Positions 11,105-30,731 of a DNA stretch of 64,000 nucleotides are shown here, piece by piece. The stretch is from Dehalococcoidia bacterium. Lineage in GTDB: Bacteria; Chloroflexota; Dehalococcoidia; Bin125. The notes beneath the pieces are model-generated. The model saw only the letters and a list, made by a program, of their open reading frames with translations. It was not told the DNA's origin and searched no databases. The position numbers and the translations under genes were made by a program. The stretch lies in the NCBI GenBank assembly GCA_965261715.1, contig OZ253471.1, forward strand, positions 2,621,422 through 2,685,421, in the 5' to 3' direction. How positions within the stretch are numbered: the first letter of the stretch is position 1; each line of letters opens with the position of its first letter.

Positions 11105-11965
11105 CGTCGGGCACAACGACATCCTTCGTGATTCCTGCGTAGGCAGGAATCACGAGGCGCCCAACGCTGTGCGGGCATCTACCTGTCGCCGTCCTCGGAT
11201 CTCCGCGCGCGGTCGCTGAGCAACGGCAAAGGCTTCGCTGCCGGCGGGCGGGCGGAGGATCGCGATTCCTGCCTGCGCAGGAATGACGGAGTTGTGGTCC
11301 TCGATTGGAGAGAGTGGATGAACTTCGCGATCGCATCAGAGGTAAGTTCGCGATCCTGGCGTATCTGTACCTGGGCTACGCGCCGGAGGCAATGCGGGAG
11401 ATACCGGCGGAGCGTCGAGCGGCTGAGGTGATCTGGCGGGGGTTGCGTCAGACACAACGACATCCTTCGTGATTCCTGCCTACGCAGGAATCACGAGGCG
11501 CCCAACGCTGTGCGGGCATCTACCTGTCGCCGTCCTCGGATCTCCGCGCGCGGTCGCTGAGCAACGGCAAAGGCCTCGCTGCCGGCGGGCGGGCGGAGGA
11601 TCGCGATTCCTGCCTGCGCAGGAATGACGGAGTTGTGGTCCTCGATTGAAGAGTGTGGATGAACTTCGCGATCGCATCAGAGGTAAGTTCGCGATCGTGG
11701 CGTATCTATACCTGGGCTACGCGCCGGAGGCAATGCGGGCGATGCCGGCAGAGCGTCGGCCGGCGGGCGGCGGTAGCGACGGACACAACGACATACCTCG
11801 TCATTCCTGCGCACGCAGGAATCACGATCCTCTTGCTGCCGCCGGGCAGCGACCCCAATTGCCGTCGCTCAGAGATTGCGCGCGGGCTCTCCCAGAACGG
11901 CTATTGGATGTACTCCGAATCAAATTGGGTGCTTCGTGATTCCTGCCTACGCAGGAATGACGGAA
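11015..11965. repeat. tandem array (~344-bp unit, about 2.7 copies) that begins inside the 3' end of the nitroreductase gene; each unit carries two ~25-bp hairpins (ATTCCTGC-N3-GCAGGAAT)
   Basis: landmark gacacaacgacatccttcgtgattcctgc recurs at ~11108 and ~11452 with a diverged third copy at ~11785; the gene tail VAYLYLGYAPEAMREMPAERRPAEV is re-encoded twice. Confidence 0.7.
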
Positions 11966-11974
11966 GTGCGGTGC

Positions 11975-12616
11975 TTACTGGTGGGAGTGGATAAATTGGG
12001 AGATCGCTTCCGCTGCTAGCTCGCGGTTGCTTTCCTCGGTGTGGCCGGAGCGCTTTCTGGGGATGAGGCCGTGGTTGCCGTCGGGGATCCATTTGAGCTT
12101 GATGTTGGGTGAGAGGTCGTAGGCCTCGACCTCCTCACGGGTTCCGTATTCGTCTCGTTCTCCCTGGACGATGAGCGTGGGCGTGGCCATCTGCTCGAGG
12201 TGGATGGTTGCTGCCCGCGAGGGATCGTTGGGGGCGTGGAACGGGTAGCTGATGCAGACCATGCCGGCTGGCTCGGCGGCGTCGGCCAGGTAGCTGGCGA
12301 TGCGTCCGCCCATGCTTCGGCCTCCGATGAACAGCTTGGAGGTTGGCACTCCCTGCTCGGCGAGCTGTTGGATGACCTGAACCCAGGTTCCGGCGAGGAC
12401 ATCCTCGGGATCAGGCGGCCAGGGACGCCGGCCAGCCTCAATAGCCCGGCGCATGTAAGGGAAGTCGAAGCGGGCGACGCGAACGCCGCGTTCGGCGATC
12501 AGCTTGGCAAGGTGTGCGGTACTGGGATGACTTGCGGATGCGCCCGCGCCGTGGGTCAACGCCAGCGTCGGCGCGGGCGGTGACTTGGGCAGATTCCAGG
12601 TCAGAGGCGTTTCCAT
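11975..12616 (-). CDS. alpha/beta hydrolase (small predicted hydrolase family with GRSMGG nucleophile elbow)
   Basis: 213-aa ORF; GxSxG motif GRSMGG; acid and His positions consistent with a catalytic triad. Confidence 0.55.
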   Translation of the reverse strand: METPLTWNLPKSPPAPTLALTHGAGASASHPSTAHLAKLIAERGVRVARFDFPYMRRAIEAGRRPWPPDPEDVLAGTWVQVIQQLAEQGVPTSKLFIGGRSMGGRIASYLADAAEPAGMVCISYPFHAPNDPSRAATIHLEQMATPTLIVQGERDEYGTREEVEAYDLSPNIKLKWIPDGNHGLIPRKRSGHTEESNRELAAEAISQFIHSHQ

Positions 12617-12649
12617 AGGATCAAGGTCGGGTTTTCCATCTGAGGGGCG

Positions 12650-12705
12650 GAAGGGACCCCCTCAGCCTGCGGCAGCTCCCCCTGCAAGGGGGAGCGGGAG
12701 GGCTT
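12650..12705. repeat. MITE/REP-like core fragment
   Basis: ccctcagcctgcggcagctccccctgcaagggggagcggga. Confidence 0.55.
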
Positions 12706-14915: not shown

Positions 14916-15019
14916 TGGTGGCTCCTTGCACTCGTTGGCTGGTCAGAGGCTAATGGGTGCGGGGACTGCCGCGGAATGAGTCGATGGAGGTGAGAGAAGT
15001 GGAAGCGCGATCGAAAACA

Positions 15020-15320
15020 ATGGAACAAAGAAATGGATCGTGTGCATTGTTTGGTGCATTTCCTCGTTGCTGAGACGCGAAATGGATCGGAGAAATGGAT
15101 CGCGTGCATTGTTTGGTGCATTTCCACGTCGCTGAGACGCGAAATGGATCGGAGAAATGGATCGCGTGCATTGTTTGGTGCATTTCCACGTCGCTGAGAC
15201 GCGAAATGGATCGGAGAAATGGATCGCATGCATTGTTTGGCGCATTTCCACGTCGCTGAGACGCGAAATGGATCAGAGAAATGGATCACGCGCATTGTTT
15301 GGCGCATTTTCCGCGTCGGC
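15020..15320. repeat. tandem repeat, 62-bp unit x ~4.7 (agaaatggatcgcgtgcattgtttggtgcatttccacgtcgctgagacgcgaaatggatcgg)
   Basis: head-to-tail copies starting near 15029, 15091, 15153, 15215 and 15277; lies between the 3' end of the 15273..17015 gene and the 5' region of the 13827..14915 gene. Confidence 0.8.
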
Positions 15321-17015
15321 TGGTTCGCGTTCGGGCGGGATTGGCACGTAATGCGATCCGCGACCGCGACCGCGCCGGTTGGCCAATCCGGCGATGCAGA
15401 GGTCGTTCATCAACCGACGCGCGCGGGCGCGGGAGTAGCCGGTCAAGAATCGGACATCGGCGTTGGCCAACTTGCCACGCGACCGCAGCTCACCGAGAAC
15501 CAGCGAGGAGGCGGCCTCGTGGTCAAGCGGACCGACCGTCTGATCTCGGGCTGCCTTAGACATCAGATACTGATAGTCCGTCGCCAGCCCATACAGGGTG
15601 TGCACTCCCCGTCCACGGGCACTGAGCATGCCTCGTTCTCGGAGCGAGACGAGCGTGTCCGCCGCCTCTGATTGGGGGAGTTGCAGCAGTGTGGCGGCGG
15701 TGTTGCGATTGAGGGCGCCTTCGTTGGCCACGCCGCGCATGGCCATCAGTTCGTTGAGGTTGAGCTGCGCCCCGCTGCGAATGACGGAGGTGACGAAGCG
15801 TGCGAATGCCTCGTCTGTCCGGGTCGGCAGGGTCAGTTCGATCGACAGTCCGGTATCGCGGTAACGCGGCATCTGCTTGCCCAGCGACAGGTGGTCTTCG
15901 ATGATCCGGTCGACGCCGAGTCCGGCGCGGTTCACGAGTCCGATTTTCTGCAGGACTTCAGCGAGCAGCGGATTGCGGCGTTCGGGGGCGTGGCGCAGGA
16001 GGTTGCTGGCGGTGATGCCGCGCACGAATCCGCCCGGGCTGGTAAAGACCAACCGATCCTCGTGCAGTTCGATCTGAATCGACGAACTGATCACATAGTC
16101 GCGGTGGACGATCGCATTGAGCAGCGCCTCGCGAGCTGTGAGATTTGAGACGATGGGGATCTCGCGATGGTAGAACCCGTCGTGGATCGTCGTGACGGCG
16201 AGATTAGGTTGGAGCCACTGATCGAACTCTTCCAGCAACGCCAGAATGGGGCTGCGCGAGTCTTTGCGCAGGTCGTATTGCGCCCCGCCGGACATCCGCA
16301 GCATGATGACTTCGTGTGCGGGCGCGGCGCGGCGGATCGCGGCCGGACTGCCCAACAGCAGGACCGCGGCCAAAGACAGTCCTCGGGACGAGGCGAGACC
16401 CAGGGCCGTCAGCAGCTCAGCGTCATCGAGCGCGAGCAGGTCGCGCTGACCGCCGTTGAGCGCGACGACGTTGCGTAGTCGCTCGATCTCGCGCGGCAGG
16501 AGATCCGACGGGTCGACATCTGATACGACCTCGGCGGAAAGGTCAAATAGGCCGCGGCCGGATATGATCTGAGCGAAGTCATGGCCGGTGATCGGTTTGC
16601 TGATGTTGCCGACCCGGATTTTGCCGATCCCTTCGGAGGTCGTATGAGGCGGAATGCCCGGCAGCACACGCAGCGCCACGACTCGTCCCTCGGGCTCATC
16701 GAAGATGTCGGGATAGACAAGAATGTGCGGCAACGTGCCATCGTGAATCTCGATCCGGAGGCGGTCAAGATTGAGATCGTCGACACCGTGAATCGCCTCG
16801 GCGCGCGTACGTTTGCGGTCGGCGACGCCGAGGATTAGCGTTCCGCCGGAAGCGTTGGCGAAGGCGACCACACTCTCGCGAATCGCGCGGATCCGATCCC
16901 GGGGCGAGCGCGGCTGTGGATTCCAGGACTTGAACTCGACGGTTTGCGATTCGATCTGGTCGGCGGTTTCGCCGTCGAGACGGGCAAGTAGTGCGCGGAC
17001 GTCGTCGAATTCCAC
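15273..17015 (-). CDS. AlbA_2 (Schlafen-like) plus HATPase_c_4 domain protein, putative ATP-binding transcriptional regulator
   Basis: 580-aa ORF; N-terminal ESQTVEFKSW...ESVVAFANASGGTLILGV matches the AlbA_2 divergent-AAA pattern; the C-terminal few codons read into the tandem repeat. Confidence 0.55.
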   Translation of the reverse strand: MEFDDVRALLARLDGETADQIESQTVEFKSWNPQPRSPRDRIRAIRESVVAFANASGGTLILGVADRKRTRAEAIHGVDDLNLDRLRIEIHDGTLPHILVYPDIFDEPEGRVVALRVLPGIPPHTTSEGIGKIRVGNISKPITGHDFAQIISGRGLFDLSAEVVSDVDPSDLLPREIERLRNVVALNGGQRDLLALDDAELLTALGLASSRGLSLAAVLLLGSPAAIRRAAPAHEVIMLRMSGGAQYDLRKDSRSPILALLEEFDQWLQPNLAVTTIHDGFYHREIPIVSNLTAREALLNAIVHRDYVISSSIQIELHEDRLVFTSPGGFVRGITASNLLRHAPERRNPLLAEVLQKIGLVNRAGLGVDRIIEDHLSLGKQMPRYRDTGLSIELTLPTRTDEAFARFVTSVIRSGAQLNLNELMAMRGVANEGALNRNTAATLLQLPQSEAADTLVSLRERGMLSARGRGVHTLYGLATDYQYLMSKAARDQTVGPLDHEAASSLVLGELRSRGKLANADVRFLTGYSRARARRLMNDLCIAGLANRRGRGRGSHYVPIPPEREPADAENAPNNARDPFL

Positions 17016-17076
17016 GGCCGAACTCCGTTAGGACTCATTTATATTAATGGATCATATCAATCTTGAATCATTCTTT

Positions 17077-17110
17077 TGCGCATTGGCGCATTTCTGAACG
17101 GGAAATGCGG
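17077..17110. promoter_or_regulatory. candidate operator in the promoter region of the AlbA_2-domain gene: direct GCGCATTG/GCGCATTT plus inverted CGCATTTC-N7-GAAATGCG
   Basis: AT-rich intergenic region; the same half-sites (GCATTTC / GAAATG) recur in every unit of the 62-bp tandem array downstream of the gene. Confidence 0.3.
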
Positions 17111-17126
17111 CGTAATCGGCGCTGAA

Positions 17127-18125
17127 TTAGCGCAATTGGTAGGTTGGCGGCTTCTTCCAACGATCTGTTGGGGGATTCTCTTGCTGGGCGAGGGCTTTGC
17201 CTCTCGCCTGTTTCTCCAGCTTCTTGCCCTGGCTGATGATGCGGCGATCGTCCTGCTGCTTGAGTTTGTTCATGGCGGCCGTCGTGGGATTCTGTATCCG
17301 TTTGATCCCTCGTGAAGCTCTGACAACGCCCGATTTCTGCAAGCTCTTCAGGTGAGCCTGGACGTTGCCGTCGGCGGCCCGGCGGAGGCGCTTGTCGATG
17401 CTGTCTCCGTAGATGTTTTCCATCATCTGCCAGGAGGTCTTGGGCTCGCCGTTCTGGAGCTGTTCGAGGATTTGGTCCTCGCGCATCTGGCGGTGAGCGA
17501 CGTACATTTCGAGCCGGTCGCGTGCTTTGCTGTCCTCGGTGTCGCGGATTAGTGGGCCGTGGCCGGGGCAGAGCACCTTGATGTTGGGCAGCTTGAGCAG
17601 GCGTCGAAGTGACGCCATGTAGGAGTTGATGTCGCCGACGACTGTGGTCGTGTTGCCGAGGATGGTGTCGCCGGTGAAGAGGATGCCTTCTTCCTCGATG
17701 TAGTAGCAGAGCGAGTCGACCGAGTGACCGGGGCTGGTCATGACCTGGACCCTGATGCCGCCGTCGAGGTTGATCGTGTCTCCATCGGTGTAGGTCTTGA
17801 CGCCCTCCTTGGGCAGGCGACCCTTGAGTAGCTTGACGGCGTTCTCGGGTACGGCGATCTCTGCCTTGAGGTGCTCGTTGACGTGCTTGAGGTTGCCGGA
17901 GTGGTCGAAATGGTGATGCGTGATTGCCGCGACGCCGATTTCGGAGTGGTCGATGGCCGCGAGGTATCCGCGCAGCATCCAACGGAACTTGTCGATTGCT
18001 TCGCCCGAGTCGATCGTCAGGGTCTGTCCGCCGCGCTGACCGATGATGTAGATGTTGGTCGAGGTCGGGCGCATCGGCTGGTCCTCGGGGACCGGGACCA
18101 TGCGGACGTTGTCGCTGATTTTCAT
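17127..18125 (-). CDS. MBL-fold metallo-hydrolase with lysine/arginine-rich C-terminal tail
   Basis: 332-aa ORF; HxHxDH motif THHHFDHSG; basic low-complexity C-terminus. Confidence 0.7.
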   Translation of the reverse strand: MKISDNVRMVPVPEDQPMRPTSTNIYIIGQRGGQTLTIDSGEAIDKFRWMLRGYLAAIDHSEIGVAAITHHHFDHSGNLKHVNEHLKAEIAVPENAVKLLKGRLPKEGVKTYTDGDTINLDGGIRVQVMTSPGHSVDSLCYYIEEEGILFTGDTILGNTTTVVGDINSYMASLRRLLKLPNIKVLCPGHGPLIRDTEDSKARDRLEMYVAHRQMREDQILEQLQNGEPKTSWQMMENIYGDSIDKRLRRAADGNVQAHLKSLQKSGVVRASRGIKRIQNPTTAAMNKLKQQDDRRIISQGKKLEKQARGKALAQQENPPTDRWKKPPTYQLR

Positions 18126-18691: not shown

Positions 18692-19693
18692 TTAGCTATG
18701 ACTGCCGATGGGGATGTTGGCGACCTGCGGCGCGACATCTCGGGCGAGGAATTCGGGGACGTCGTCGCGCTCGAACATGAAGTGCTGGAACTGGACCTCG
18801 GCGACCCCGGCTTCGGCCAGTTTGCCGAGGGCGTCCACGACTTCGTCGGCGCCGCCGACGAGGCGTCCCATTGCGTTGAACTCGGTCAGGAACTCGTCCA
18901 GTGGCTGACCGGGTCGTCCGAACATGCCCTGGACAAACTTGCCTCCCGCCTCAACCAGTTCGGGCGGACCGACGGCGTGGAACATCATCATTGAGTGTTC
19001 GATTTCGTCGGGATTGCGGTCGATGGCTTCGCAGGCTCGGGCCAGGACATCGCGCTTGTGTCCGTAGGCGTCGGGTGTGAGTGAGACGCAGTTCCACTCG
19101 TCGGCGTATTTCGCGGCCATGGGGATGGTTCGCTTCTCCCCGCCTCCGCCGATCAGGATGGGCGGTCGGCCCGGCTCGGGGTTGGGCAAGCAGTCTGCGC
19201 CGTCCAGTTGGTAGTACTCGCCGCTGTAGTTGGATTGGCCGGGGCTCCAGAGCGCTTGCATGAGGTTGATTGCGTCTTCGAGGCGGTCGAAGCGCTCTTT
19301 GGTCGGCGGGAAGTTGAGACCGTAGGCGTCGTGCTCGGCCTGGTTCCAGCCGGTGCCGAGACCCATGACGAAGCGGCCGCCGGAGAGTTGGTCGATCTGT
19401 GCGGCCATGCGTCCGACATCGACTGGTCGTCGGAAGGTGACCGGTGTGACCATTGGTCCGAAGCGCAGGTTGGAGGTCTGCTCGGCGGCCATGACGAAGC
19501 TGAGGAAGCACTCAAGGCTGTCCTGCTGGTTGCTCGCGATGGGGCCGGTGAAGTAGTGGTCGCTGCGGAAGAGGGAAGGGAAGTCCAGTCGGTCGGCGAG
19601 TTTGAGGATGTGACGCCAGCGATCCCAGGTGAGACCGTTCTGTCCTTCAACCATCAGGGCGACGCGCATCAGTAGTACTCCTGCCACGCGCAT
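18692..19693 (-). CDS. LLM-class F420-dependent oxidoreductase
   Basis: 333-aa ORF; LLM signatures (FGPMVTPVTFRRP, GGRFVMGLGTGW); start may be at MRVALMVEG. Confidence 0.7.
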   Translation of the reverse strand: MRVAGVLLMRVALMVEGQNGLTWDRWRHILKLADRLDFPSLFRSDHYFTGPIASNQQDSLECFLSFVMAAEQTSNLRFGPMVTPVTFRRPVDVGRMAAQIDQLSGGRFVMGLGTGWNQAEHDAYGLNFPPTKERFDRLEDAINLMQALWSPGQSNYSGEYYQLDGADCLPNPEPGRPPILIGGGGEKRTIPMAAKYADEWNCVSLTPDAYGHKRDVLARACEAIDRNPDEIEHSMMMFHAVGPPELVEAGGKFVQGMFGRPGQPLDEFLTEFNAMGRLVGGADEVVDALGKLAEAGVAEVQFQHFMFERDDVPEFLARDVAPQVANIPIGSHS

Positions 19694-19794
19694 CGGCGAT
19701 GCGCCGGTGTTGGCATGGTAAAGGGCAGTCGTACGACCAGACCCTATGCAATCAGAGGCGCCCGGGAATCTTCTGATTACCTCCTCTCGGTGGC

Positions 19795-20153
19795 CGATCG
19801 CCCCCCCTTCTCCCCCCTCGCGGGGGAGATGCCGGAGGCAGAGGGGGGTCTCTCCATTCCAAGGCGTATCTGGTCGCTGGCGGAGGACCCCCCCCCTCTG
19901 TCACTTCGTGACATCTCCCCCCGCAAGGGGGGGAGAGGGGATTTGTGAGTTTTGCAAAGGTCTCCTTGCGGGGGAGATGCCGAAGGCAGAGGGGGGTTCC
20001 CTATCGCAATGCCTATCTGGTCGTCGCCGGCGACCCCCCCTCTGTCACTCCATGACATGTCCCCCCGCACGGGGGGGAGAGCGGAACTGAGAGTTTTGCA
20101 AAGGTCTCCGCGAGGGGGGAAGCGGGGAATGGGGTTATTCAGAGCATTCCTAG
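19795..20153. repeat. cluster of two MITE family B copies plus a family A right end
   Basis: gggggagatgccg(a/g)aggcagagggggg ... cccctctgtcac(t/c)(t/c)cgtgacatctcccc units joined by the linker ttgtgagttttgcaaaggtctcc; ends with ggggttattcagagcattcctag. Confidence 0.75.
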
Positions 20154-21283
20154 CGAGTAAAGGCGATGGCGTCGTCAAGCACGATGACGTCGACAGGATC
20201 GTCGGGATGCCAGACGACTTCGGTGCGCAGTCTCGCTTCGACTTCGACTCCCGACTGCAATCGCACACGGACGACCTGATCGTGCCCGTAGTACTCGCTG
20301 CTGATCACATTGGCGCAGTCGGGGCCGTCATCCTGGCAGGGCTTGAGCGCGAGCTGCTCGGGACGGAGCAGGATGTCGATGGGCTCACCGGTGGATTCTG
20401 TTTGCGGATCGGTAATGACCACGAAGCCCAGCTCAGTCTGGGCGCCGCCGCGGACTCGTTCACCTGGGAGGATGTTGGCGTCGCCGACGAAGGTGCCGAT
20501 GAAGCGCGTCTCCGGGCGGTAGTAGATGTCGTCGGGCGCGCCGATCTGTTCGATTCTGCCATTGCGCATGACGGCGACGCGGTCGGCGAGGGAGAGGGCT
20601 TCCTCGCGGTCGTGCGTGACGAAGACGGCGGCGGTGTTGGCCGCCTTGAGGATGTTGCGCATGGCGAGACGGAGGCTGGCTCGGAGATTCTGGTCGAGGT
20701 TGCTGAAGGGCTCGTCCAGCAGGACCGCGGCCGGCTCGGGCGCGAGCGCCCGGGCGAGCGCCACGCGCTGGGCTTCGCCGCCTGAAAGCTCGTGCGGATA
20801 GCGCTGCGCGAAATCATCGAGGCCGACGAGTTCCAGCATTTCCCTGACGCGCGCGGGTTCCTCGGTGTGTCGGAACCGGCGCAGCGGGCGGCTCCACCAG
20901 GCGTGGTGGCCGTTGGGCAGGCCGAAGGCGATGTTCTCGGCAACGCTGAGGTGCGGGAAGAGGGCAAAGTCCTGGGCGACCATGCCGATGCGGCGTTGTT
21001 CGGGTGGTCGCCAAACTCCGGGTCCGACGGCGGTCTCGCCGTTGATCTGGACCAGACCGCGGTCGGGTCGCTCGAAGCCAGCGAGGACGCGCAGCGTCGT
21101 GGACTTGCCACAGCCGCTGGGTCCGAGCAGGGCGACGATCTCGCCGTGCTGGACCTGGAACGAGGCGTCGCGGACGGCGGCAGTTTCGGCGAACGACTTC
21201 GTTACCTCTCGCACGACCAGCGCCGGGGTGAGGTTGGGATGGCTCTCGGGTTGACTATGCGCGGAGGTCACGGTCTTGTCCAA
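20150..21283 (-). CDS. ABC transporter ATP-binding protein (Fe3+/polyamine importer type, C-terminal TOBE-like domain)
   Basis: Walker A GPSGCGKST, ABC signature LSGGEAQR, Walker B LLDEP. Confidence 0.8.
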   Translation of the reverse strand: MDKTVTSAHSQPESHPNLTPALVVREVTKSFAETAAVRDASFQVQHGEIVALLGPSGCGKSTTLRVLAGFERPDRGLVQINGETAVGPGVWRPPEQRRIGMVAQDFALFPHLSVAENIAFGLPNGHHAWWSRPLRRFRHTEEPARVREMLELVGLDDFAQRYPHELSGGEAQRVALARALAPEPAAVLLDEPFSNLDQNLRASLRLAMRNILKAANTAAVFVTHDREEALSLADRVAVMRNGRIEQIGAPDDIYYRPETRFIGTFVGDANILPGERVRGGAQTELGFVVITDPQTESTGEPIDILLRPEQLALKPCQDDGPDCANVISSEYYGHDQVVRVRLQSGVEVEARLRTEVVWHPDDPVDVIVLDDAIAFTR

Positions 21284-22862
21284 ACAGCAGGATCATCGGT
21301 ATTGCGGCGCAGCCGAGCAAGAGCAACGCGTCGGCCGCTGCTCGGGCGAAATACACATCTGCATGTTGTACCCAGAGGTCGGTGGCCAAGGTCTCGAAGC
21401 CAATCGGCGAAAGCAGCAGTGTGGCGGGTAGTTCTTTCATGGTCGTGAGGAAGACCAATGCGAACCCGGCCAGCACGCCGGGCGCGATTAGGGGAAGCGT
21501 AACGCCGTAGAAGGTTTGCCAGGAGTTTCGGCTGAGCGAGCGCGACGCCTCTTCCAGTCCCGGCTGCACCCGAACCAGGGAGGAACGGAGTCCGGAAATA
21601 GCCTGAGGCAAGAAGAGCACGACGTAGGCGAAGACGAGGATCGCGAGTGTTTGATACAGACCGGGAGTCACTCGCAACGAGAAGAAGATCAACGCGAAGG
21701 CGACCACGATTCCCGGTAGGGCGTACCCGACGTATGCAGCGCGGTCGATGATCCGCGAGAGGAAGCCGGGGCGACGGACGACGACGATCGCGACCGGCAG
21801 CGCCGCTGCGACAGCGACGGCTCCCGCGAGGGCTGATGCTTCCATGGAGTTGAGGGCGGCGGTCCAGAGTCCGGGGAAGGTCTCGCCCTGCTCGATGCCA
21901 TTCGCGAGCCAGTGGAACAACACCGCGACCGGGACGAGCAATGCGAGGGCTGAGATCACGAACAGACCGAACACGGCGGGCCAGCGCAGGCGTCGCAGTT
22001 GAATCAGTCTTGGAGTACGCGCTGCGCCACTGCCGAGCCGGTGATAGCGAGCGTTTCGTCGTTGCGACCAGTCAACGGCCAGGACGACGGCGATCAGGCC
22101 GACGAGCACGATGGAGAGGACGGCAAGGGTTGAGCGATCGAAGGTCGAACCGAAGCGCACATAGATGGCACGGGTGAAGGTGTCGAATCGCATCATTGAG
22201 ACTGCGCCGAAGTCGGAGATGACATAGAGGGCCACCAGCAGTCCACCGGCGGCAAGGGGCACACGCAACTGCGGCACGGTGACTCGCCAGAACGCTCCCC
22301 AGGCGGACTGCCCCAGCGAGCGGGCCGCTTCCTCGATTGCGGGGTCGAGATTGCGCAGCCCGGCCCTGATCACCAACAGCAGATAGGGATAGGTGAACAG
22401 GGTCAGCACGAGCCAGGAGCCAACGAAGCCGTAGAGGGAGGGGATGTGGTCCACGCCGAGAGGGGCGAGCAACTCCTGCAGCGAACCGTGGGGTCCAAGC
22501 GCGACGATGAAGGCGAATGCGCCGACATAGGAAGGAACGGCGAGCGGCATGATCGTGATCGAGCGCCACCAGCGGGCGAAGGGCAGATCGGTGCGCTCGG
22601 TCAGATAGGCCATCGGTAGGGCCAGGGCGGCTGAAGTGGCGGTAACCGAAACTGCGAGCGCAGCGGTGTTGAGCAGCAGTCGCAGGGTCTCCTTGGAGAC
22701 GATGTCGGCCCAGGCATCGGTATCGGCCTGGGCGGCTCGGACGATCAGGTAGATGAGTGGAATGCAGGCCGCAGCGGCTGCCGCGATTGCCAGGATCCAG
22801 ATGATGGGGATGTTGAAGCGGAGGCGCGATGGAATTTCGGCGGTTCCGCTGAGGAAGCTCAT
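21255..22862 (-). CDS. ABC transporter permease, duplicated-domain type (iron(III) permease FbpB-like)
   Basis: 535-aa ORF with about 12 TM segments as two repeated halves; overlaps the ATPase gene. Confidence 0.7.
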   Translation of the reverse strand: MSFLSGTAEIPSRLRFNIPIIWILAIAAAAAACIPLIYLIVRAAQADTDAWADIVSKETLRLLLNTAALAVSVTATSAALALPMAYLTERTDLPFARWWRSITIMPLAVPSYVGAFAFIVALGPHGSLQELLAPLGVDHIPSLYGFVGSWLVLTLFTYPYLLLVIRAGLRNLDPAIEEAARSLGQSAWGAFWRVTVPQLRVPLAAGGLLVALYVISDFGAVSMMRFDTFTRAIYVRFGSTFDRSTLAVLSIVLVGLIAVVLAVDWSQRRNARYHRLGSGAARTPRLIQLRRLRWPAVFGLFVISALALLVPVAVLFHWLANGIEQGETFPGLWTAALNSMEASALAGAVAVAAALPVAIVVVRRPGFLSRIIDRAAYVGYALPGIVVAFALIFFSLRVTPGLYQTLAILVFAYVVLFLPQAISGLRSSLVRVQPGLEEASRSLSRNSWQTFYGVTLPLIAPGVLAGFALVFLTTMKELPATLLLSPIGFETLATDLWVQHADVYFARAAADALLLLGCAAIPMILLFGQDRDLRA

Positions 22863-22934
22863 GGGTTGAGATTATCGGAGATAATTGTCATGAAGTAACA
22901 GAATCGCCGAAACGTCGATCTGGATAGGTTCAGG

Positions 22935-23200
22935 AATGGCTTATGGAACTCTGATCGGTGGCCGGCTTTCGGCAGCTTCCCGCGCGCGGAGACCCTTGCG
23001 TAAGTCGGCATCCCCCCCTTGGGGAGACCTTTGAAAAACTCCTCTTCTCCCCCCTTGCGGGGGAGATGCCGAAGGCAGAGGGGGGGCTCCCCATCTCAAG
23101 GCCTATCTGGTCGCTGGCGCCCCCCCTCTGTCACTCCGTGACATCTCCCCCCGCAAGGGGGGGAGAGGGGATCTGGATCGTTCGGAGCATGCTTATGGAA
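22935..23200. repeat. MITE family B composite cluster inserted between the substrate-binding and permease genes of the ABC operon
   Basis: cttatggaact...cggcagcttcc leader then ttgcgggggagatgccgaaggcagaggggggg...cccctctgtcactccgtgacatctccccccgcaaggggggagaggggat. Confidence 0.75.
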
Positions 23201-24344
23201 GTGCGCCGACTTCTCGGAGGAGATCGAGGGTGCCCTCGAGGTCGGAGAGCGAAGTTAATGCGAGGGACGGTGCGTTGAGCTCGGCCAGGGGGACGAGTTC
23301 AGCGCGGGCGTCGACGCCGGCGGCGACGGGGTACTCACTGGTCTCGTCGCGGAAGTAGGTCTGCCCCTCTTCACTGAGCAGGAAGCGAACGAAGGCAAGG
23401 GCGTTTTCGTCGTTGTCGGATGCGTTGAGGAGCGCGACGCCAGCGATGTTGATCAGGCCTCCGGCTGCGCCGGGGTCGGTGAAATGGTTGGCGGCGGGGA
23501 AGTTCGGATCTTCGGCGGTGAAGCGGAAGAGATAGTAGTGATTGACCATCCCGATATCGAGTTCGCCATCGCCGACGGCCTGAACTTGTGGCGAGTTCTT
23601 GGGATACTCGCGGACATCATTGGCAATCATGCCGCGCAGCCATTGCTCGGTTGCTTCGTCGCCGTGGATCTGTCGCATGGCAGTGACGAACGCCTGGAAG
23701 CTACCGTTGGACGGCGCCCAACCAACGCGGCCGCGCCATTCTTCGTTGACGAGGTCGAAGACGCTGTCGGGTGGGTTGGGGACACGCTCGGGCGAATAGA
23801 CCAGCACGCGGGCCCGTCCGGAAGTGGCGACCCAGCGACCCGAAGCGTCGGCGAATTGTTCTGAGACTCTGTCGATAATGTCGTCGGGGAGCTGGGTCAG
23901 CGCGCCGTTCTCGGCCAGGGCGGCGAGTGCGCCGGCGTCCTGCGCGTAGTAGACATCGGCGGGCGAGCGGCCGCCTTCTTCGAGAATGGCAGCGGCCAGC
24001 TCAGCAGTGCCGGCGTAGCGAACTCGGACCGTAATGCCGGTGAGCTCTTCGAATCGCTCGATGATCGGTCCGACCAGCGATTCACCGCGACCGGAGTACA
24101 CGGTCAGCTCGCCGGGGTCGACGGGTTCGTCCTGTTGTTCGTCTTGTGACCCGTTACTCGTAACGGTCGAAGCGGATTGCGCGGCGTCAGATGAGGAGGA
24201 GGCGCGATCGGCGGCTTCTGTTGCTTCGGAGTTGTCGGCTGTGCAGGCGCTCAGTGTGATCGAGGTGGCAACGATGAGCGCTATTGGGATGAAGAGCGCT
24301 CGTAGAGCGTGCAGGCGCGTCACGGCGATGCGAAGTCTGGACAT
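23193..24344 (-). CDS. Fe(3+) ABC transporter substrate-binding lipoprotein (FbpA/AfuA family)
   Basis: LTVYSGRGESLVGPIIERFEELTGITVRV pattern typical of iron(III) SBPs; signal peptide with lipobox LSAC; start taken at the MSRLR methionine. Confidence 0.65.
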   Translation of the reverse strand: MSRLRIAVTRLHALRALFIPIALIVATSITLSACTADNSEATEAADRASSSSDAAQSASTVTSNGSQDEQQDEPVDPGELTVYSGRGESLVGPIIERFEELTGITVRVRYAGTAELAAAILEEGGRSPADVYYAQDAGALAALAENGALTQLPDDIIDRVSEQFADASGRWVATSGRARVLVYSPERVPNPPDSVFDLVNEEWRGRVGWAPSNGSFQAFVTAMRQIHGDEATEQWLRGMIANDVREYPKNSPQVQAVGDGELDIGMVNHYYLFRFTAEDPNFPAANHFTDPGAAGGLINIAGVALLNASDNDENALAFVRFLLSEEGQTYFRDETSEYPVAAGVDARAELVPLAELNAPSLALTSLSDLEGTLDLLREVGALP

Positions 24345-24416
24345 TGGTGTGACGCTTCCCGACCGGCGAGCGCAGATGATCTGCACCTCATTCCGCCGAC
24401 AGGAGGATTATTTCCT

Positions 24417-24439
24417 AAACTTGCATTTATTGCAAGTTT
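24417..24439. promoter_or_regulatory. perfect 23-bp AT-rich palindrome aaacttgca-tttat-tgcaagttt upstream of the Fe(3+) ABC operon
   Basis: 9-bp perfect arms in an AT-rich island within GC-rich DNA, about 30-70 bp upstream of the candidate SBP start codons. Confidence 0.3.
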
Positions 24440-24472
24440 ATGAGGAATAAGAAGAAACCTGGCCCAAACCAA

Positions 24473-24775
24473 TCACCAGGAGCTCTTGCGGACGCCGGGC
24501 AAGAGGCCGAGTGAGGCCATCTCGCGGAAAGTGATGCGGCTGAGGCCAAACTTGCGCATGTAGGCGCGCGAGCGACCGGTCACGGCGCAGCGGTTCTTGA
24601 TCCGGGAGGGCGAGCTGTTACGCGGCAGCGCCTGCAGCTGGTACTGGATGTTCTGCTTCTCGCGCGGGTTGTTGGTTTCTTTGAGCTGCTGCTTGAGGGC
24701 CGCGCGGCGGCTCTTGTACTTGGCGTGCATCTCGCGACGCTTGAGGTCGCGGTGGATATTCGAGGTTCGGGCCAT
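24473..24775 (-). CDS. rpsN: 30S ribosomal protein S14 (long, non-zinc-ribbon form)
   Basis: 100-aa [27 protein letters not shown]...[10 protein letters not shown] matching the S14 family end to end; no CxxC zinc ribbon; not located in a ribosomal-protein operon. Confidence 0.85.
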
Positions 24776-24877
24776 GCGTCGTCCAGTGGTTGGGTGTGCA
24801 GATCGTTTTGATGAGCGTAACGGTGATCAGGCGGACAGAGCTAGACCGAGCTTCACAATTGTCATGTTGTGGGTCGA

Positions 24878-24937
24878 TTGCGTGCTGGGGAGCCCCCTCC
24901 GTCACTTCGTGACACCTCCCCCAGAGGGGGAGGTCTG
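24878..24937. repeat. partial MITE family B copy
   Basis: ggggagccccctccgtcacttcgtgacacctcccccagagggggagg. Confidence 0.55.
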
Positions 24938-24942
24938 GAACT

Positions 24943-25404
24943 CTAGTCTCGGCGCTTTCGCTTTTCGATTTTGCGGCCACTCTGCTCTTCGAGGCGGCCG
25001 AGGGCTCGGCCTTTGTCTGGGTGTGGGTCTTTGCGGACACCGTAGATGGCGATGCCTTCGTGATTTTCCGGGAGGTACTCGGTGATGGGAAGACCTTCCT
25101 CATCGCAGAAGAGTAGTCAATGGCAGTATTTCCAACGCTGCATCTCCTCGCAGGGACAGATCCAGGTGGACTCTTTGACCTCTTCGGCCTTGTCCTCGTA
25201 GAAGTTGCAGGGACAGAGCGGACGGCCGTAGTCGTCGATGTGCTTGGCCAGACCAATCACGAGGAATTCGGTGATGTCTTCCTGGGGGTGGAGGTAGGAC
25301 CCACTCTTGTCCGCGAATTTGGTCGCGAACTTGGTCATCTTGTTGAGGTTCTTTTCGGACGCTTGCTGTCGATCGCCCTCGCTGACTCTTTCAACTTCTG
25401 TCAT
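24943..25404 (-). CDS. ferredoxin-thioredoxin reductase catalytic-subunit homolog with an in-frame TGA at the conserved CHC cysteine (candidate selenocysteine; otherwise a pseudogene)
   Basis: table ORF 25117..25404 ends ...LCPCNFYEDKAEEVKESTWICPCEEMQRWKYCH-TGA; the same frame continues LLFCDEEGLPITEY... to TAG at 24943-24945; CPC-16-CPC-8-CH(TGA)-LF spacing matches cyanobacterial FtrC CPC...CPC...CHCMLF. Confidence 0.5.
25084..25104 (-). promoter_or_regulatory. candidate SECIS-like hairpin GAUG(A)GGAA-GGUC-UUCCCAUC beginning about 13 nt downstream of the in-frame UGA
   Basis: 8-bp stem with one bulged A and a GGUC apical loop containing GU, in the position where bacterial SECIS elements occur. 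Confidence 0.3.
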
Positions 25405-25482
25405 CGCGCTCCGCCCGTCTATCCGAATTTCAACTTCGTCGGCAGGTTCACTGTACGTCTTGGGGGATCGAACCGATGGCGG

Positions 25483-26370
25483 CTAGTCGTTGGCGCTGTC
25501 GCCGCCTTTTCGGAAGAAGTCTTCGAGGTCGGCGATCAAGGCGTCGGCGCTGGGCAGCTCGCTCTCCGCTTGCTCCTGTTGTGGCGCGGGACTGGCGGCC
25601 TCGAGACGAGCGACGTAATCGCGCAGGTCGTTGTTATCGCGCAGCGCCTCTTCAAGCTGGGAATGGAATCGATGGATGCCGCGCTCGAGGGGATCGAGGT
25701 CGAAGGTGAGTCCGGTCATGTCGCTGACGACGCGCAACAGCGCCTGCGCGCCGACCGGATTGGTGATGCCCGGCAGATAGTGCGGCACCGAGGCCCAGAG
25801 CGAGACTCCGGCGACGCCCTGTCGTCGGCAGTGGTCGTGGAAGACGCCGACGATCCCGGAAGGTCCTTCGAAGCGGGACGGGTGCATGTTGTATCGCTGG
25901 GCAAGCTCGGAGTTGTTGGCCGAGCCGCGTACGTGTACCGGCTGGGTGTGCGGCGTACCGGCTGCGACCGAACCGAGCGACAGAATCAGCTTGGCGCCGA
26001 TGGCGTCGACGAGCTCGGACATGGCCGCCATGTAGCGCTTCCAGCGATACTGCGGCTCGATGCCGATCCCGACCACGATGTCGCGACCGCTGGAGGAGGG
26101 GCGGAGGTGGACGAACTCGGTGTCGGGCCAGGAGATATAGCGTTCTCCGTTTTGATAGCGGGCCATGGGCCGCGCGTCCGTAAAGTCGTAGAATTCCTCT
26201 GGGTCGATGGTGGCGAACGGCTTCACGCCCAACTGTTGAATCAGATACTGGGCAGCGCTGGAGGCCGATTCGCCGGCGTCGTTCCAGCCTTCCCAGGCCA
26301 TAATCAGGACTGGGTCGGTGAGATTGGGGAGTTCCTCAATATTGAGGTCAGGTGAGGTGGTCATGAGCAA
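25483..26370 (-). CDS. PAC2-family protein (proteasome-assembly-chaperone-2-like)
   Basis: 295-aa ORF; N-terminal ...LIMAWEGWNDAGESASSA and overall length typical of actinobacterial PAC2 proteins. Confidence 0.55.
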   Translation of the reverse strand: MLMTTSPDLNIEELPNLTDPVLIMAWEGWNDAGESASSAAQYLIQQLGVKPFATIDPEEFYDFTDARPMARYQNGERYISWPDTEFVHLRPSSSGRDIVVGIGIEPQYRWKRYMAAMSELVDAIGAKLILSLGSVAAGTPHTQPVHVRGSANNSELAQRYNMHPSRFEGPSGIVGVFHDHCRRQGVAGVSLWASVPHYLPGITNPVGAQALLRVVSDMTGLTFDLDPLERGIHRFHSQLEEALRDNNDLRDYVARLEAASPAPQQEQAESELPSADALIADLEDFFRKGGDSAND

Positions 26371-27229
26371 AGTTTACTCCAGCGCCAACGGCGCAACAGC
26401 CATGCAACTGACGCAGGCGTGGGCTGTGCGCGTCGTGGGAAATCGGGAACAGGCGGAACGGGTACGGGAGGAATCGGACGGTGGCGATCACTACCGCCCG
26501 ATCGCGTCGGCGTTCCGCGCCGATCCTCGGCGCACGGGCGACGCGGCGTTGGAGGCACTGCTGGAGCTGGCGTCGAAGGATGACGTCTGGGTTGACGTTG
26601 GCGCCGGGGCCGGCAGATTCGCTCTGCCGCTGGCTCTGCATGTCCAGAAGGTGATCGCGGTTGAGCCGTCGCGGGGCATGAGGGCGGAGTTGGCGCAGAT
26701 GCAAGTGGAGCACGGCGTGTTGAACGTCGAGGTGCGCGAACAGCGTTGGCCGTCGGATGATCCGGAGATCTCGGGCATGGCCGATGTGGCGTTGATCTCG
26801 CATGTTGCCTACGACATCGAACCGATCGGCGAGTTCCTGGACGCGCTGGAGCGGTCGGCGACGAGGGAGTGCGTGGCGATTCTCTACGATCGCTCGCCCG
26901 GATCACTGTTCTGGGAGGTCTGGCCGGCGGTCCACAGCGAGGAACAAGTGCATCTGCCAGGAGGCAATGAGTTTGTCGAGCTGCTGGAAGCGCGTGGCGC
27001 GCAGGTTGATGCGGTCGAGATTGGGCGCGGGGGAGACCGACAACGATTCATGTTCGGCTCGCCCGATGACGCGATGGGATGGGCGCGACGGCGACTATGG
27101 TTGGCTAAGGATTCGTCGCGGTTGCCGGTGTTGCGCGATGCGGTGGCGGAACTATTGATTGAACGGGACGGCTCGTGGTCGTTGCCGGATCAACCGAAAC
27201 AGATGCTGATTCGCTGGAGGACAAGATGA
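26363..27229 (+). CDS. class I SAM-dependent methyltransferase
   Basis: motif I VDVGAGAGRFALPLA; start at MSKVY, or alternatively MQLTQ at 26402 to avoid divergent overlap with the neighbouring gene. Confidence 0.6.
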   Translation: MSKVYSSANGATAMQLTQAWAVRVVGNREQAERVREESDGGDHYRPIASAFRADPRRTGDAALEALLELASKDDVWVDVGAGAGRFALPLALHVQKVIAVEPSRGMRAELAQMQVEHGVLNVEVREQRWPSDDPEISGMADVALISHVAYDIEPIGEFLDALERSATRECVAILYDRSPGSLFWEVWPAVHSEEQVHLPGGNEFVELLEARGAQVDAVEIGRGGDRQRFMFGSPDDAMGWARRRLWLAKDSSRLPVLRDAVAELLIERDGSWSLPDQPKQMLIRWRTR

Positions 27230-27816
27230 ACCGAGTTACACCGATGACAACCGCCGAGCTGCTGGAGGCGGCGCCGTATCTGTCGGCCATTCATAACAAC
27301 GGAGGCACGATTCCCACGTCGTTCCATGTCCTGGGACGGCGGCCGAAGGTGCTGGAAGCATTCCAGCCGTTCTTCGGTTCAATCATGCGGGAAGGAACGG
27401 TGCCGCCAGGTCTGAAGCAACTGATTGCGCACGTGGTCTCGCGTACGGCCGGGTGTCTGTACTGCCAGGCGCATACGGGACACTTTGCGCACACGCTTGC
27501 GGGCGAGACCTACGAGCGAGTCGAAGCAGTGTGGGCGTTTGAGACGTCGGAGTTGTTCTCAGAGGCCGAACGCGCTGCGTTGCGGGTCGCTCGCGACTCC
27601 GGCGGCGTACCGAATGCTACGACGGATGAGCAGTTCGACGAACTGCGGAAGTACTGGTCGGACTCGGAGATGGTTGAGATTGTTTGCGTGATCTCGATGT
27701 TTGGATTCCTCAATCGGTTCAATGACACGTTGGCGAACGAGCTGGAGCCGGACGCGGTTGAGTTTTCGGACGCTCATCTGGTGCAGGCGGGCTGGTCGGT
27801 CGGCAAGCACGGCTGA
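27226..27816 (+). CDS. carboxymuconolactone decarboxylase (AhpD-like) family protein
   Basis: CxxC(x)H motif CLYCQAH; start ATG overlaps the previous stop (ATGA). Confidence 0.65.
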   Translation: MNRVTPMTTAELLEAAPYLSAIHNNGGTIPTSFHVLGRRPKVLEAFQPFFGSIMREGTVPPGLKQLIAHVVSRTAGCLYCQAHTGHFAHTLAGETYERVEAVWAFETSELFSEAERAALRVARDSGGVPNATTDEQFDELRKYWSDSEMVEIVCVISMFGFLNRFNDTLANELEPDAVEFSDAHLVQAGWSVGKHG

Positions 27817-27869
27817 GATTGGCTGCGCTGCATACACAACCCGACCGTTTGGGGTCATTCCCTTTGCTC

Positions 27870-27966
27870 CCCCTCCCAGGGGGATCTGCCGAAGGCTGAG
27901 GGGGTTCCCCAGCGCTGGCGACCCCCTCAGTCGCTCCGCGACAGCTCCCCCTGGAAGGGGGATCTC
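27870..27966. repeat. MITE family B variant (agctcc subtype)
   Basis: ccccctcccagggggatctgccgaaggctgagggggttcccc...ccccctcagtcgctccgcgacagctccccctggaagggggatctc. Confidence 0.65.
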
Positions 27967-27993
27967 TTGGGAAGGATTGCTGGTCGCCTGTGC

Positions 27994-28890
27994 TCAGCGG
28001 GGCTTGTCTTCCATTGGGTTTTCGACTCCGTGGAAGAAGGCTCCTCGGTAGATCTTTGTGTCTCCTCGAACTCTGGCTTCCCATTCCTGGTCCGTCATGG
28101 CTTCTCTGAGGCGGATGGTTTGGATTGTGTCTTCTCCGATGGGCCAGCGCATGGGGAGTAGCTGTTCGAGTTCGACGATGTCGGCGACGGCGGTGGCGAC
28201 GGAGCGGGAGCCGGGGCGCGTGGCGGCTCGGGTGCGGAACGTGTTGAGGGCGTGGTCGGCGGATTCCTGGTAGGGCGAACGGCCCTCGCGCACTGCCTGG
28301 GCGACGTCAAGGTTGGTGGTCTGCCAGTCGGAGGCGTACATGCCGGGTTCGAGGATCGTGACATCGACGTTCCAGCGCGAAACCTCGTAGCGCAGGGCCT
28401 CGGACATTGCCTCGACGGCCCATTTTGAGGCGGCGTAGAGGCCCATCATCGGCGCGACGATCCGTCCAGCGAGTGATGAGACGTTGATGATCTTGCCGTG
28501 ATGCTGGTCTCGCATCGCGGGCAACACGGCGCGCGCCATGCGAATCTGACCGACGAAGTTGGTGTCCATCTGGCGCGTGACTTCTTCGTCGGACATGTCC
28601 TCGACCGGGCCGTAGAGTCCGTAGCCGGCATTATTGAATAGCGCGTCGACGCGTCCGAATCGTTTGAGTCCGGCGTCGACGGCCACTTCGATGGATGCCG
28701 GGGCGGTGACATCGCATTGGGCGATCTCGACTAGTTCCGGGTCGATGTTGGCCAGGTTCGGGCGGTCGCGGTCGGGATTGCGCATGGTCGCAATGACGGG
28801 ATGTCCTCGAAGCGTGAGCTCTTCCGTGGCGGCGAGGCCGAAGCCGCGCGATGCGCCGGTGACTAGCGTGACCTGTCGCTCAAGTACCAT
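27994..28890 (-). CDS. SDR family oxidoreductase
   Basis: TGASRGFG cofactor-binding motif; YxxxK active site. Confidence 0.8.
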   Translation of the reverse strand: MVLERQVTLVTGASRGFGLAATEELTLRGHPVIATMRNPDRDRPNLANIDPELVEIAQCDVTAPASIEVAVDAGLKRFGRVDALFNNAGYGLYGPVEDMSDEEVTRQMDTNFVGQIRMARAVLPAMRDQHHGKIINVSSLAGRIVAPMMGLYAASKWAVEAMSEALRYEVSRWNVDVTILEPGMYASDWQTTNLDVAQAVREGRSPYQESADHALNTFRTRAATRPGSRSVATAVADIVELEQLLPMRWPIGEDTIQTIRLREAMTDQEWEARVRGDTKIYRGAFFHGVENPMEDKPR

Positions 28891-28907
28891 GATTCAGCCT
28901 CCGCATC

Positions 28908-29831: not shown

Positions 29832-29841
29832 AGCGCCGCGG

Positions 29842-30405: not shown

Positions 30406-30417
30406 GGGGTCAGGCTA

Positions 30418-30616
30418 GTGGGTGTCTCAGAAGTCCTTCCTGCGGAGAGTTTCTCCAGTCCCCGCCTCCGAGCGGGGACCCGTTCCTCTGCGGCCGTGGT
30501 ACGGGCTGACACCTGTCTCATCTGACAGGTCCGGGTTGGCAGCGTCGACCGCACAGCACCGATACCGAGCGGGTCCCGGCTCGGCGGCCGGGACGGGAGG
30601 ATATGAGACACCCTTA
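30418..30616. repeat. ~190-bp element bounded by inverted repeats gggtgtctca/tgagacaccc containing hairpin family C (gtccccgc-ctccga-gcggggac; gggtcccggc-tcggcg-gccgggac)
   Basis: terminal IRs seen directly; the internal hairpins recur at 49595-49620, 54537-54562 and 51396-51422. Confidence 0.55.
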
Positions 30617-30617
30617 T

Positions 30618-30731
30618 TAGGAATGCTCTGAATAGCTGTCGCCGGTGGCCGCTCGGGGACCCCCCTTCAGCCTGCGGCAGCTTCCCCCGCAAGGGGGGAA
30701 GCGGGGATCAGAGTTGTTCAGAGCATTCCTA
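30618..30731. repeat. MITE family A, complete copy
   Basis: taggaatgctctgaatagc...ccttcagcctgcggcagcttcccccgcaaggggggaagcggggatcagagttgttcagagcattcctag. Confidence 0.75.

Follow-up and report, generated by a model that had tools for sequence, protein, structure and literature searches.

The stretch of DNA analysed here, referred to as the window, comprises 64,000 nucleotides of the forward strand of a Dehalococcoidia bacterium belonging to the Chloroflexota (assembly GCA_965261715.1, contig OZ253471.1, positions 2,621,422 to 2,685,421). It contains two ATP-binding cassette (ABC) transporter operons in which a GC-rich repeat lies between the gene of the substrate-binding protein (SBP) and the permease gene, a peptidase S9 gene, an insertion sequence (IS) of the IS5 family and further copies of the repeat. 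[quoted passage not shown] By BLAST of consensus units against the window, 17 related clusters were detected, which include every range listed there and comprise 2228 nt (3.5% of the window), corresponding to one cluster per 3.8 kb. A repeat search revealed 12 in-register copies of the core CCCCCTCTGTCACTYCGTGACATCTCCCCC, five copies of a 136-nt unit and several further families built from a 19-nt end. The pattern of this end, GGAGACCTTTGNANAACTC, occurs 13 times with at most three mismatches, compared to 0.10 occurrences expected from shuffled sequences. What had been taken for one family proved to be several families lumped together: the repeat consists of nested layers, and the listed clusters mix at least four things, namely solo copies of a hairpin module (H), H doublets without terminal inverted repeats (TIRs), true B copies, and pieces within a second, TA-flanked MITE (A-type).

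The H module has a length of ~50 nt and contains two hairpins in the order GGGACCCCCC-TC, small hairpin (GCC-TTC-GGC or GTCAC-TYC-GTGAC), second hairpin (CTCCCCC-GCAA-GGGGGAG, i.e., C6-GCAA-G6) and GGGGAT. B is a non-coding MITE of ~177 bp (176-178 bp in full copies), in which an inverted pair of H modules is located between the 19-nt inverted repeats GGAGACCTTTGMAAAACTC and GAGTTTTGCAAAGGTCTCC. Its left part consists of the left end GGAGACCTTTGAAAAACTC, the hairpin CCCCCC-TTGC-GGGGGAG, the arm GGGGGAGATGCC-GNA-GGCAGAGGGGGGG and a spacer of ~38 nt; the right part follows with the arm CCCCCCCTCTGTCAC-TCC-GTGACATCTCCCCCC, the hairpin loop GCAA-GGGGGGGAGAGGGG and the right end GAGTTTTGCAAAGGTCTCC. 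Both ends co-vary within copies across genomes. The assignment to the MITEs is borne out by the TIRs, by loop duplications relative to empty sites and by a partner IS with the same ends. The repeat is real, but its unit had been parsed wrongly: the presumed linker between units is actually the TIR of the mobile unit, and the imperfect inverted pair regarded as the unit is the internal core or cargo and does not represent the transposon ends. In total, seven B copies or partial copies are located within the 64 kb (Table 1).

The full copy at 38838-39013 is flanked by TTGC on both sides (38834-38837 and 39014-39017) and occupies the loop of an H hairpin (38795-38837 / 39014-39035) between the SBP and permease genes. 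The second full copy (34386-34563) is in reverse orientation and occupies the GCTTCCCCC-GCAA-GGGGGGAAGC hairpin of an A-type element starting at ~34310. Outside the flanking 4-mers of the full copies, the hairpin halves read CATCTCCCCCC / GGGGGGTGAGGGG or GCTTCCCCC / GGGGGGAAGC. Since direct 4-mer flanks are followed by the two halves of a hairpin, the full copies are located in the loop of H hairpins.

The comparison of relatives for presence/absence polymorphism, as proposed in the first-pass annotation, yielded clean empty sites. These came from contigs of protein homologs; a metagenome scan yielded a single close ortholog (L112). On the contig L122 from the European Nucleotide Archive (ENA), the genes are 91-95% identical at the nucleotide level to window positions 28102-40510, and the sites of both full B copies are empty, with an uninterrupted H hairpin. 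In the SBP/permease spacer, which has 104 bp compared to 284 bp in the window, L122 reads ...GTGACATCTCCCCTC-GCAA-GGGGGGAGATG...; in the window, this hairpin is split by B. Between the DUF3179 and MOSC genes, it reads GCAGCTTCCCCC-GCGA-GGGGGGGAAGCGAGGATCACGG, and the window has GCAA-B-GCAA at this point. At both sites, the filled and empty states differ by exactly the element and one loop repeat, B being inserted precisely into the tetraloop, which is repeated on either side of it. For the composite array at 19764-20152, neither B nor A-type ends were found in the orthologous spacers of L119 and L120. These loci are syntenic, with genes ~85% identical, and have unrelated spacers of 238 and 449 bp between the luciferase-like and ATPase genes. 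In the more distant ortholog L112 (~83%), a different nest, a B inside a reversed B, is located at the SBP/permease spacer. Because of the empty sites in L122, the absence of the array from L119 and L120 and the differing nest in L112, the elements are lineage-specific and recent. With empty sites in related genomes, the alternative of old, neutral relics that are fixed across relatives does not apply. A side observation concerns the loop itself, which in the same orthologous H hairpin is GCAA in L122 (~11985) and its reverse complement TTGC on both sides of B at 38834-39017 of the window, suggesting loop inversion in these palindromes.

An association with IS5 or other transposases had been named as a point to be checked, and an intact IS5-family element with the same 19-nt ends was found in the window itself. 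Its transposase open reading frame (ORF; 50108-51091) is intact and encodes 327 aa from ATG, whereas the ORF call begins at TTG 50090. The protein carries the Pfam domains DUF772 and DDE_Tnp_1 (E ~1e-26) and matches the NCBIfam model NF033581 (IS5 family equivalog) with 262 bits (cut-off 140) over profile positions 6-284 of 285. B and the IS are bounded by identical ends: the left end of the IS, GGAGACCTTTGAAAAACTC, is identical in 19 of 19 nt to the TIRs of the B copies at 23023 and 38838, and the right end is CAGTTATTCAAAGGTCTCC. Positions 50095-51054 resemble a ~1.2-kb element in L056 with 70% nucleotide identity (BLAST against the fetched loci). The IS, which is flanked by GCAA on both sides, interrupts a B copy in its right-hand hairpin; the left part of this copy has the degenerate TIR GAGACCAATGCGTAACTC. 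This split copy is in turn flanked by TGCAA on both sides and located within a solo H hairpin (49862-49898 / 51342-51360). Excising the IS in silico restores a complete right end of B. As reconstructed, positions 49862-51360 form a three-level nest of an IS in a B copy in an H hairpin, and the clusters listed at 49730-50060 and 51275-51360 are the two sides of one site that is split by the IS.

Table 1. Repeats, the IS and transporter genes of the window.
Feature	Position	Strand	Details or evidence
Full B copy, 176 bp	38838-39013	+	Left TIR 38838-38856, right TIR 38995-39013
Full B copy, 178 bp, reverse	34386-34563	-	Flanked by GCAA at 34382-34385 and 34564-34567
Composite array	19764-20152	+	Sequence and motif coordinates
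B copy with left TIR (23023-23041), without right TIR	23023-23172	+	Between SBP and permease genes
B copy with degenerate left TIR (45014-45031), without right TIR	45014-45163	+	Sequence
B copy split by the IS	49899-51341	+	Left part 49899-50035, right part 51290-51341
Autonomous IS5-family IS, 1250 bp	50036-51285	+	TIRs 50036-50054 and 51267-51285
Solo IS5-type TIR	49742-49760	-	Followed by GCAA and G9 (hairpin 3' half)
Solo H module, GTCAC type	24884-24940	+	Repeat search, sequence
Other solo or embedded H modules	6934-6986, 12645-12698, 45499-45577		H alone at 6934 and 12645
H module, in frame within peptidase S9 gene (7002-8987), ~aa 369-386	8106-8158	+	Ortholog alignment
H doublet (inverted pair, 17-nt spacer), without IS5-type ends	27862-27975	+	Sequence, BLAST
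Second H doublet, without IS5-type ends	52476-52597	+	Directly 3' of amidohydrolase stop codon
A-type MITE, 111 bp	9036-9146, 30620-30729, 62150-62262		Ends GGAATSCTCTGAACAAC, TA-flanked, one H module as cargo
Degenerate A-type ends	19764-19781/20134-20150, ~22941/23196, 34310, 45487		
SBP gene, followed by a repeat	23193-24386	-	Pfam
Permease gene, following the repeat	21255-22862	-	Pfam
ATPase gene	20150-21283	-	Pfam
PBP_like_2 gene, followed by a repeat	37874-38773	+	Pfam
Permease gene, following the repeat	39058-39756	+	Pfam

The composite array has outer ends of the A-type, a degenerate left one (19764-19781) and a right one (20134-20150) whose flanking TA overlaps the stop codon of the ABC ATPase gene. 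Within the array, the copies B1 (19801-19965, right TIR 19947-19965) and B2 (19970-20109, right TIR 20091-20109), both without a left TIR, are joined by TTGC (19966-19969), and B2 is followed by GCGA and the 3' half of an A-type hairpin (20110-20130). The copy at 23023-23172 is preceded by a degenerate second TIR (22988-23006) and enclosed by A-type ends at ~22941-23196, and the copy at 45014-45163 is preceded by ...CTTCCACC-GCAA and fused to a degenerate A-type right end. The solo TIR at 49742-49760 is the end of a different MITE, which is related to positions 4055-4229 of L040. The H, A-type and B elements are oriented ~14:1 in one direction, on the strand with strongly positive GC skew, and the spacing of their G/C-runs is non-canonical for a G-quadruplex or i-motif. 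Throughout the window, the GC skew of the forward strand lies between +0.02 and +0.15, though most genes are located on the reverse strand.

In a scan with one genome per species, the 19-nt end was found at no fewer than 111 loci. Most of them belong to Chloroflexota or 'Dehalococcoidia' metagenome-assembled genomes (MAGs), with a few MITEs in Desulfobacterales, Lysobacterales and other groups. L056, L073 and L012 contain elements of ~1.2 kb that share these ends and encode an IS5-type transposase, and B-like copies with 80-94% identity are present in at least nine other genomes or contigs, including L016, L011, L103, L095, L087, L003, L046 and L112. Among the loci listed, the sequence adjoining the 19-nt end varies widely between genomes, so that only the ends are common to them. 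The same loci contain 44 TIR-bounded elements with flanking direct repeats, of which 23 lie in hairpins with at least five further contiguous stem pairs; the six MITEs from outside the Chloroflexota are not located in hairpins. The occupied stems are of several unrelated kinds (CCCTCTCC/GGAGAGGG, ATTCCCGC/GCGGGAAT, ATTCCTGC/GCAGGAAT, CTTCCCCC/GGGGGAAG and C6/G6), and the stem ATTCCCGC/GCGGGAAT matches the CGTC-1 type of repetitive extragenic palindromic (REP) sequences (PMC3733652). In the window, all 12 real TIR ends abut a C-run and loop or a loop and G-run. Since several unrelated stems are hit, we infer that hairpin shape or symmetry is recognised by this IS5-type system. We rejected a fixed orientation of B with respect to the loop sequence, as both arrangements are found among three insertions. 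Furthermore, L006 has a B-like MITE (1197-2522) that shares the ends, has related arms and contains a 318-aa ORF that is IS110-family-like, judging the family from sequence alone; this gene would be a secondary insertion and another nesting layer in these palindromic elements.

Target duplications of the IS5 family are short and fixed, with 2-9 bp depending on the subgroup. For the elements described here, the length is ambiguous by one base per side, as the host palindrome extends into the terminal G...C of the end. An end starting with GGAGACC implies a repeat of 4 bp for even and 3 bp for odd loops, and one starting with GAGACC, the convention published for ISNme1 and ISPg1, a repeat of 6 or 5 bp. 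The GAGACC reading is favoured for four MITEs from outside the Chloroflexota, as their first base is variable and agrees with the flank on the opposite side. Under both placements of the end, the duplication is centred on the hairpin axis.

With a probability of about 85%, B is a MITE with the ends of an IS5-family IS that is driven by this IS and lands in the loops of GC-rich hairpins, with H as a separate, older repeat serving as target. According to this model, the DDE transposase of the IS, which is intact at 50036-51285, would move B in trans, and the IS as well as B would insert at the apex of GC-rich hairpins, with duplication of the loop (GCAA or TTGC). The duplication would comprise 4 bp, or 6 bp together with the closing C-G pair for an end starting with GAGACC, and 5 bp (TGCAA) in one copy. 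The putative target, the H hairpin, would predate B, and it also occurs solo, in doublets, in the TA-flanked MITE and in frame in a gene. As B itself carries two H hairpins, new copies would land within old ones. Later deletions between C- and G-runs would have removed inner ends, and nesting and deletions together would have produced the nested, apparently tandem arrays between genes, including those between cistrons. Any effect on expression would be a by-product. A mechanism of the IS110 or IS200/IS605 type, which leaves no duplication, is ruled out by the TIRs, the duplications and the DDE partner.

Several points weigh against this model. It is from the shared ends that the transposase of the IS at 50036-51285 is taken to mobilise B. 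The orientation bias of 14:1 is not predicted by a symmetric DDE mechanism. Across species, the arms of H hardly vary and are better conserved than the TIRs, and H doublets occur without TIRs; part of the spread of the core may be independent of IS5 ends. The majority of the copies in the window lack one end and are hence immobile now, and we infer secondary deletions for the arrangement of these end-less copies. The duplication can be read as 4 or 6 bp long and, in other copies, as 3 or 5 bp. Finally, an earlier loop flip is required at 38838, where the duplicated loop is TTGC, as L122 has GCAA in its empty site.

A much less probable alternative is a core of the type of REP sequences or their hairpin-forming doublets (REPINs), in which the inverted H pair would be the true replicating unit, spread by a single-strand mechanism, like that of HUH enzymes or REP-associated tyrosine transposases (RAYTs), or by another mechanism, and the IS5-type ends would be later captures of little importance. 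Besides the conserved arms, this would account for the solo H modules and for the doublets at 27862-27975 and 52476-52597. The arms of the former doublet co-vary relative to B (CTGAGGGGG/CCCCCTCAG vs. CAGAGGGGG/CCCCCTCTG in B), and the H subfamilies preserve their pairing via coordinated changes. The strong bias to one DNA strand is also a property of single-strand transposons. In addition, H is gained and lost independently in the peptidase gene. The copy at 8113-8155, which the first-pass annotation had noted as being in frame, is indeed part of this gene, and the insertion lies between the propeller and catalytic domains. The ortholog alignment revealed a forward H in the window and L119/P0001-3, a reversed H at the same site in L121/P0012, P0005 and P0015, and longer versions in P0003, P0017 and P0031; L120 and the outgroups are without H. 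Gain and loss of H thus occur without any ends, as illustrated by both orientations at this single site. In view of this, H may have spread by a route independent of B, for which a REPIN-like mechanism is possible. For B as a whole, however, such an origin is unlikely. Both full copies differ from the empty sites by exactly the sequence from TIR to TIR and the loop repeat, which argues that B moves as a TIR-bounded unit. Moreover, H modules begin with GGGACCCCCC and have no GTAG or CGTC tag, and no Y1 transposase was found among the 20 window proteins scanned, the window annotation being partial, nor among the genes tabulated for L119-L122. In L119 (9935-9960, compared to window 6955-6965), the small hairpin of the orthologous H module located upstream of the peptidase gene carries a palindromic insert of ~24 nt, CCCGTTCAAGCCGGGGGCAGGCTC, which is another small insertion into a hairpin loop.

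A still lower probability is assigned to the view that the elements are kept as cis-regulatory RNA structures, i.e., stabilisers or attenuators that set the ratio of SBP to permease, in line with the differential expression proposed in the first-pass annotation. Two clusters are located directly after SBP genes and before permease genes, and Pfam assignments agreed with the first-pass annotation in placing both between cistrons of operons. Their hairpins are very stable: B and its host hairpin (38795-39035) fold at -71 kcal/mol as DNA (z = -7.3), and the RNA consensus fold has -91 kcal/mol, so that the element would be structured if transcribed. A REP sequence between malE and malF is an established precedent, and the H hairpin, the only part at the SBP/permease position that is common to the window and L122, could act in the same manner. 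B itself, judged by its distribution, is not a conserved regulatory part, since it is absent from the same operon in the 91-95% identical L122. Two further relatives are without the whole array at 19764-20152. No Rfam family matched at the gathering score in the whole window, and none of the 18 terminator-like sites in 19500-39400 lies within a B element, their number not being above that in shuffled sequences (18 vs. 13.4 +/- 3.7). The same elements also separate convergent genes, lie upstream of genes and occur within an ORF.

It is very improbable that the arrays were formed by slippage, unequal recombination or gene conversion among palindromes with G/C-runs and not by transposition, as in a mosaic resembling bacterial interspersed mosaic elements (BIMEs): this would fit the tandem-looking units with a period of 144 nt at 19795-20153, the many copies without an end and the loop flip between GCAA and TTGC among relatives, but not the precise TIR-to-TIR insertions with duplicated loops relative to empty sites, the autonomous IS whose ends and kind of target are the same, or the unrelated cargos bounded by the same ends in many genomes. 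Recombination or slippage is largely refuted by the comparison with the empty sites as the primary mechanism and is likely as a secondary process that trims nested copies.

A wider, tentative reading is that a lineage of IS5-family elements in the Chloroflexota picks its targets by DNA shape and not by sequence (dyad axis of repeats that form hairpins or cruciforms, unrelated stems), with a duplication that tracks loop parity (3/5 vs. 4/6 bp). The target hairpin would have become part of the cargo of its MITEs, resulting in self-nesting 'safe-haven' arrays, and H would be separately mobile, strand-biased and similar to Rickettsia palindromic elements (RPEs). For H, which is nearly invariant across species, no mobilising enzyme is known. 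For genome annotation, the preferred model implies that intergenic G/C-rich palindromes in Chloroflexota MAGs would be regarded as layered mobile DNA and not as regulatory RNAs, with the 19-nt end as a simple marker for this IS5-type family across many MAG species. Close relatives that differ by only a 176-bp structured insert between SBP and permease offer a natural experiment on cistron expression. The preference for the hairpin apex combined with a self-carried target would be a tidy example of safe-haven targeting and of BIME-like mosaic building; the current understanding of transposons is unchanged by it.

Several other repeats were observed in the window. The flanking TA of the A-type MITE is often located within a stop codon, and the element is missing from the orthologous sites of L120, L121 and L122. 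Among the sequences compared, no autonomous partner of it was detected; the TA duplication presumably points to the IS630/Tc1 type. A third MITE-like element at 30418-30612, with the ends GGGTGTCTCAGAAGTCC ... GGATATGAGACACCC, is also present in L123 (~2600) and missing from the orthologous spacer of L122; it contains hairpins of the sequences GTCCCCGCC-TCCGA-GCGGGGAC and GGTCCCGGCTCGGCGGCCGGGAC. At 9160-9195 and 62340-62375, CGTC-tagged REP-like palindromes (CGTCATTCCCGCG...CGCGGGTATGACG) are found. At 11011-11975, three tandem repeats of ~341 bp carry GATTCCTGC-N4-GCAGGAAT hairpins, a type that is a favoured target of the same IS5-type ends in other Chloroflexota MAGs, and in L119 and L120 this block is missing or much reduced in length. 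A ~2.2-kb segment at 14930-17130 is absent from the syntenic L119 and L120. It contains four 62-nt tandem repeats (15019-15328) and a gene on the reverse strand (15273-17015, 580 aa) with Schlafen AlbA_2 and HATPase_c_4 domains. The adjacent genes at 62399-63457 and 63515-63946, both on the reverse strand, are paralogous with ~80% identity over 300 nt, and the paralogs in 62400-63994 have internal repeats of ~150 nt (families D9 and D14) that are unrelated to B and H.

In the literature on Chloroflexi MITEs or nested IS5 MITEs, no description of the B family was found. Matching ends have been published for IS5-family elements. The IS5-family element ISNme1, the proposed parent of the Neisseria MITE ATR, has the ends GAGACCTTTGCAAAA / TTTTGCAAAGGTCTC, and ISPg1/ISPg9 and the MITE BrickBuilt have near-identical ends with 12-nt TIRs sharing the start GAGACCTTTGCA (PMC4596501). 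The end of the IS and of B in the window is the same sequence as the published TIR of ISNme1/ISPg1, GAGACCTTTGCA(AAA), and a Mesorhizobium IS5-family element that is 46% identical has the related ends TGGGCCTGTTGCGTAATT. The BrickBuilt/MITE239-type elements of Porphyromonas gingivalis and the Neisseria ATR resemble B in the terminal sequence (GAGACCTTTGCAAAA; for ISPg1/ISPg9, the first 12 nt GAGACCTTTGCA). Like B, they are non-coding, have an unrelated interior and a full-length IS5-family partner in the same genome, and nest into other elements. B differs from them in its cargo of inverted GC-rich hairpin modules, in its Chloroflexota host with 62% GC and in the concentration of its insertions in hairpin loops.

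Extragenic palindromes are targeted by five IS families including IS5, which is experimentally proven for IS1397 and IS621 (Tobes and Pareja, 2006; PMC1525189). The IS targeting REP sequences comprise IS1397 and ISKpn1 of the IS3 family and others of the IS110, IS4, IS256 and IS5 families, and the IS5-family element IS1106 is listed as REP-associated (PMC1525189). Similar to B and the IS of the window, IS1397 prefers an extragenic palindromic repeat, its target being located within the palindromic unit of BIMEs. Unlike in IS1397 and ISKpn1, the transposase described here belongs to a family other than those of the experimentally proven cases, the preference is common to a MITE that brings along its own target and hence nests within itself, and stems of several unrelated sequences are hit.

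H resembles REP sequences, REPINs and BIMEs (PMC3733652) as a short, GC-rich extragenic palindrome that occurs as singlets and inverted doublets, in mosaic clusters and within operons. Unlike REPINs, it carries neither a GTAG nor a CGTC tag, and B has DDE-type TIRs and target duplications, which REPINs lack. In contrast to RAYT systems, no RAYT was found among the 20 window proteins scanned or the genes tabulated for L119-L122, the search of window and genome not being exhaustive. RPEs are palindromic repeats that lie in frame in coding genes and do not destroy the gene. The H module at 8106-8158 is likewise an in-frame palindromic insertion in a gene that is not destroyed, and it differs from RPEs in lineage and sequence and in occurring in either orientation at the same site among relatives. 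MITEs of the Correia/NEMIS, ERIC and RUP types are small TIR elements that are co-transcribed with their neighbours and fold into long hairpins, and for some of them RNA-level processing or regulation is documented. B is similar to these in being a small TIR element that folds into a long hairpin. RPEs are mentioned and Correia/NEMIS, ERIC and RUP are listed in the work on REPINs (PMC3733652). The system in the window is of a kind that is already known; specific to it are the H-doublet cargo, the accumulation of insertions in hairpin loops and the self-nesting to which this leads.

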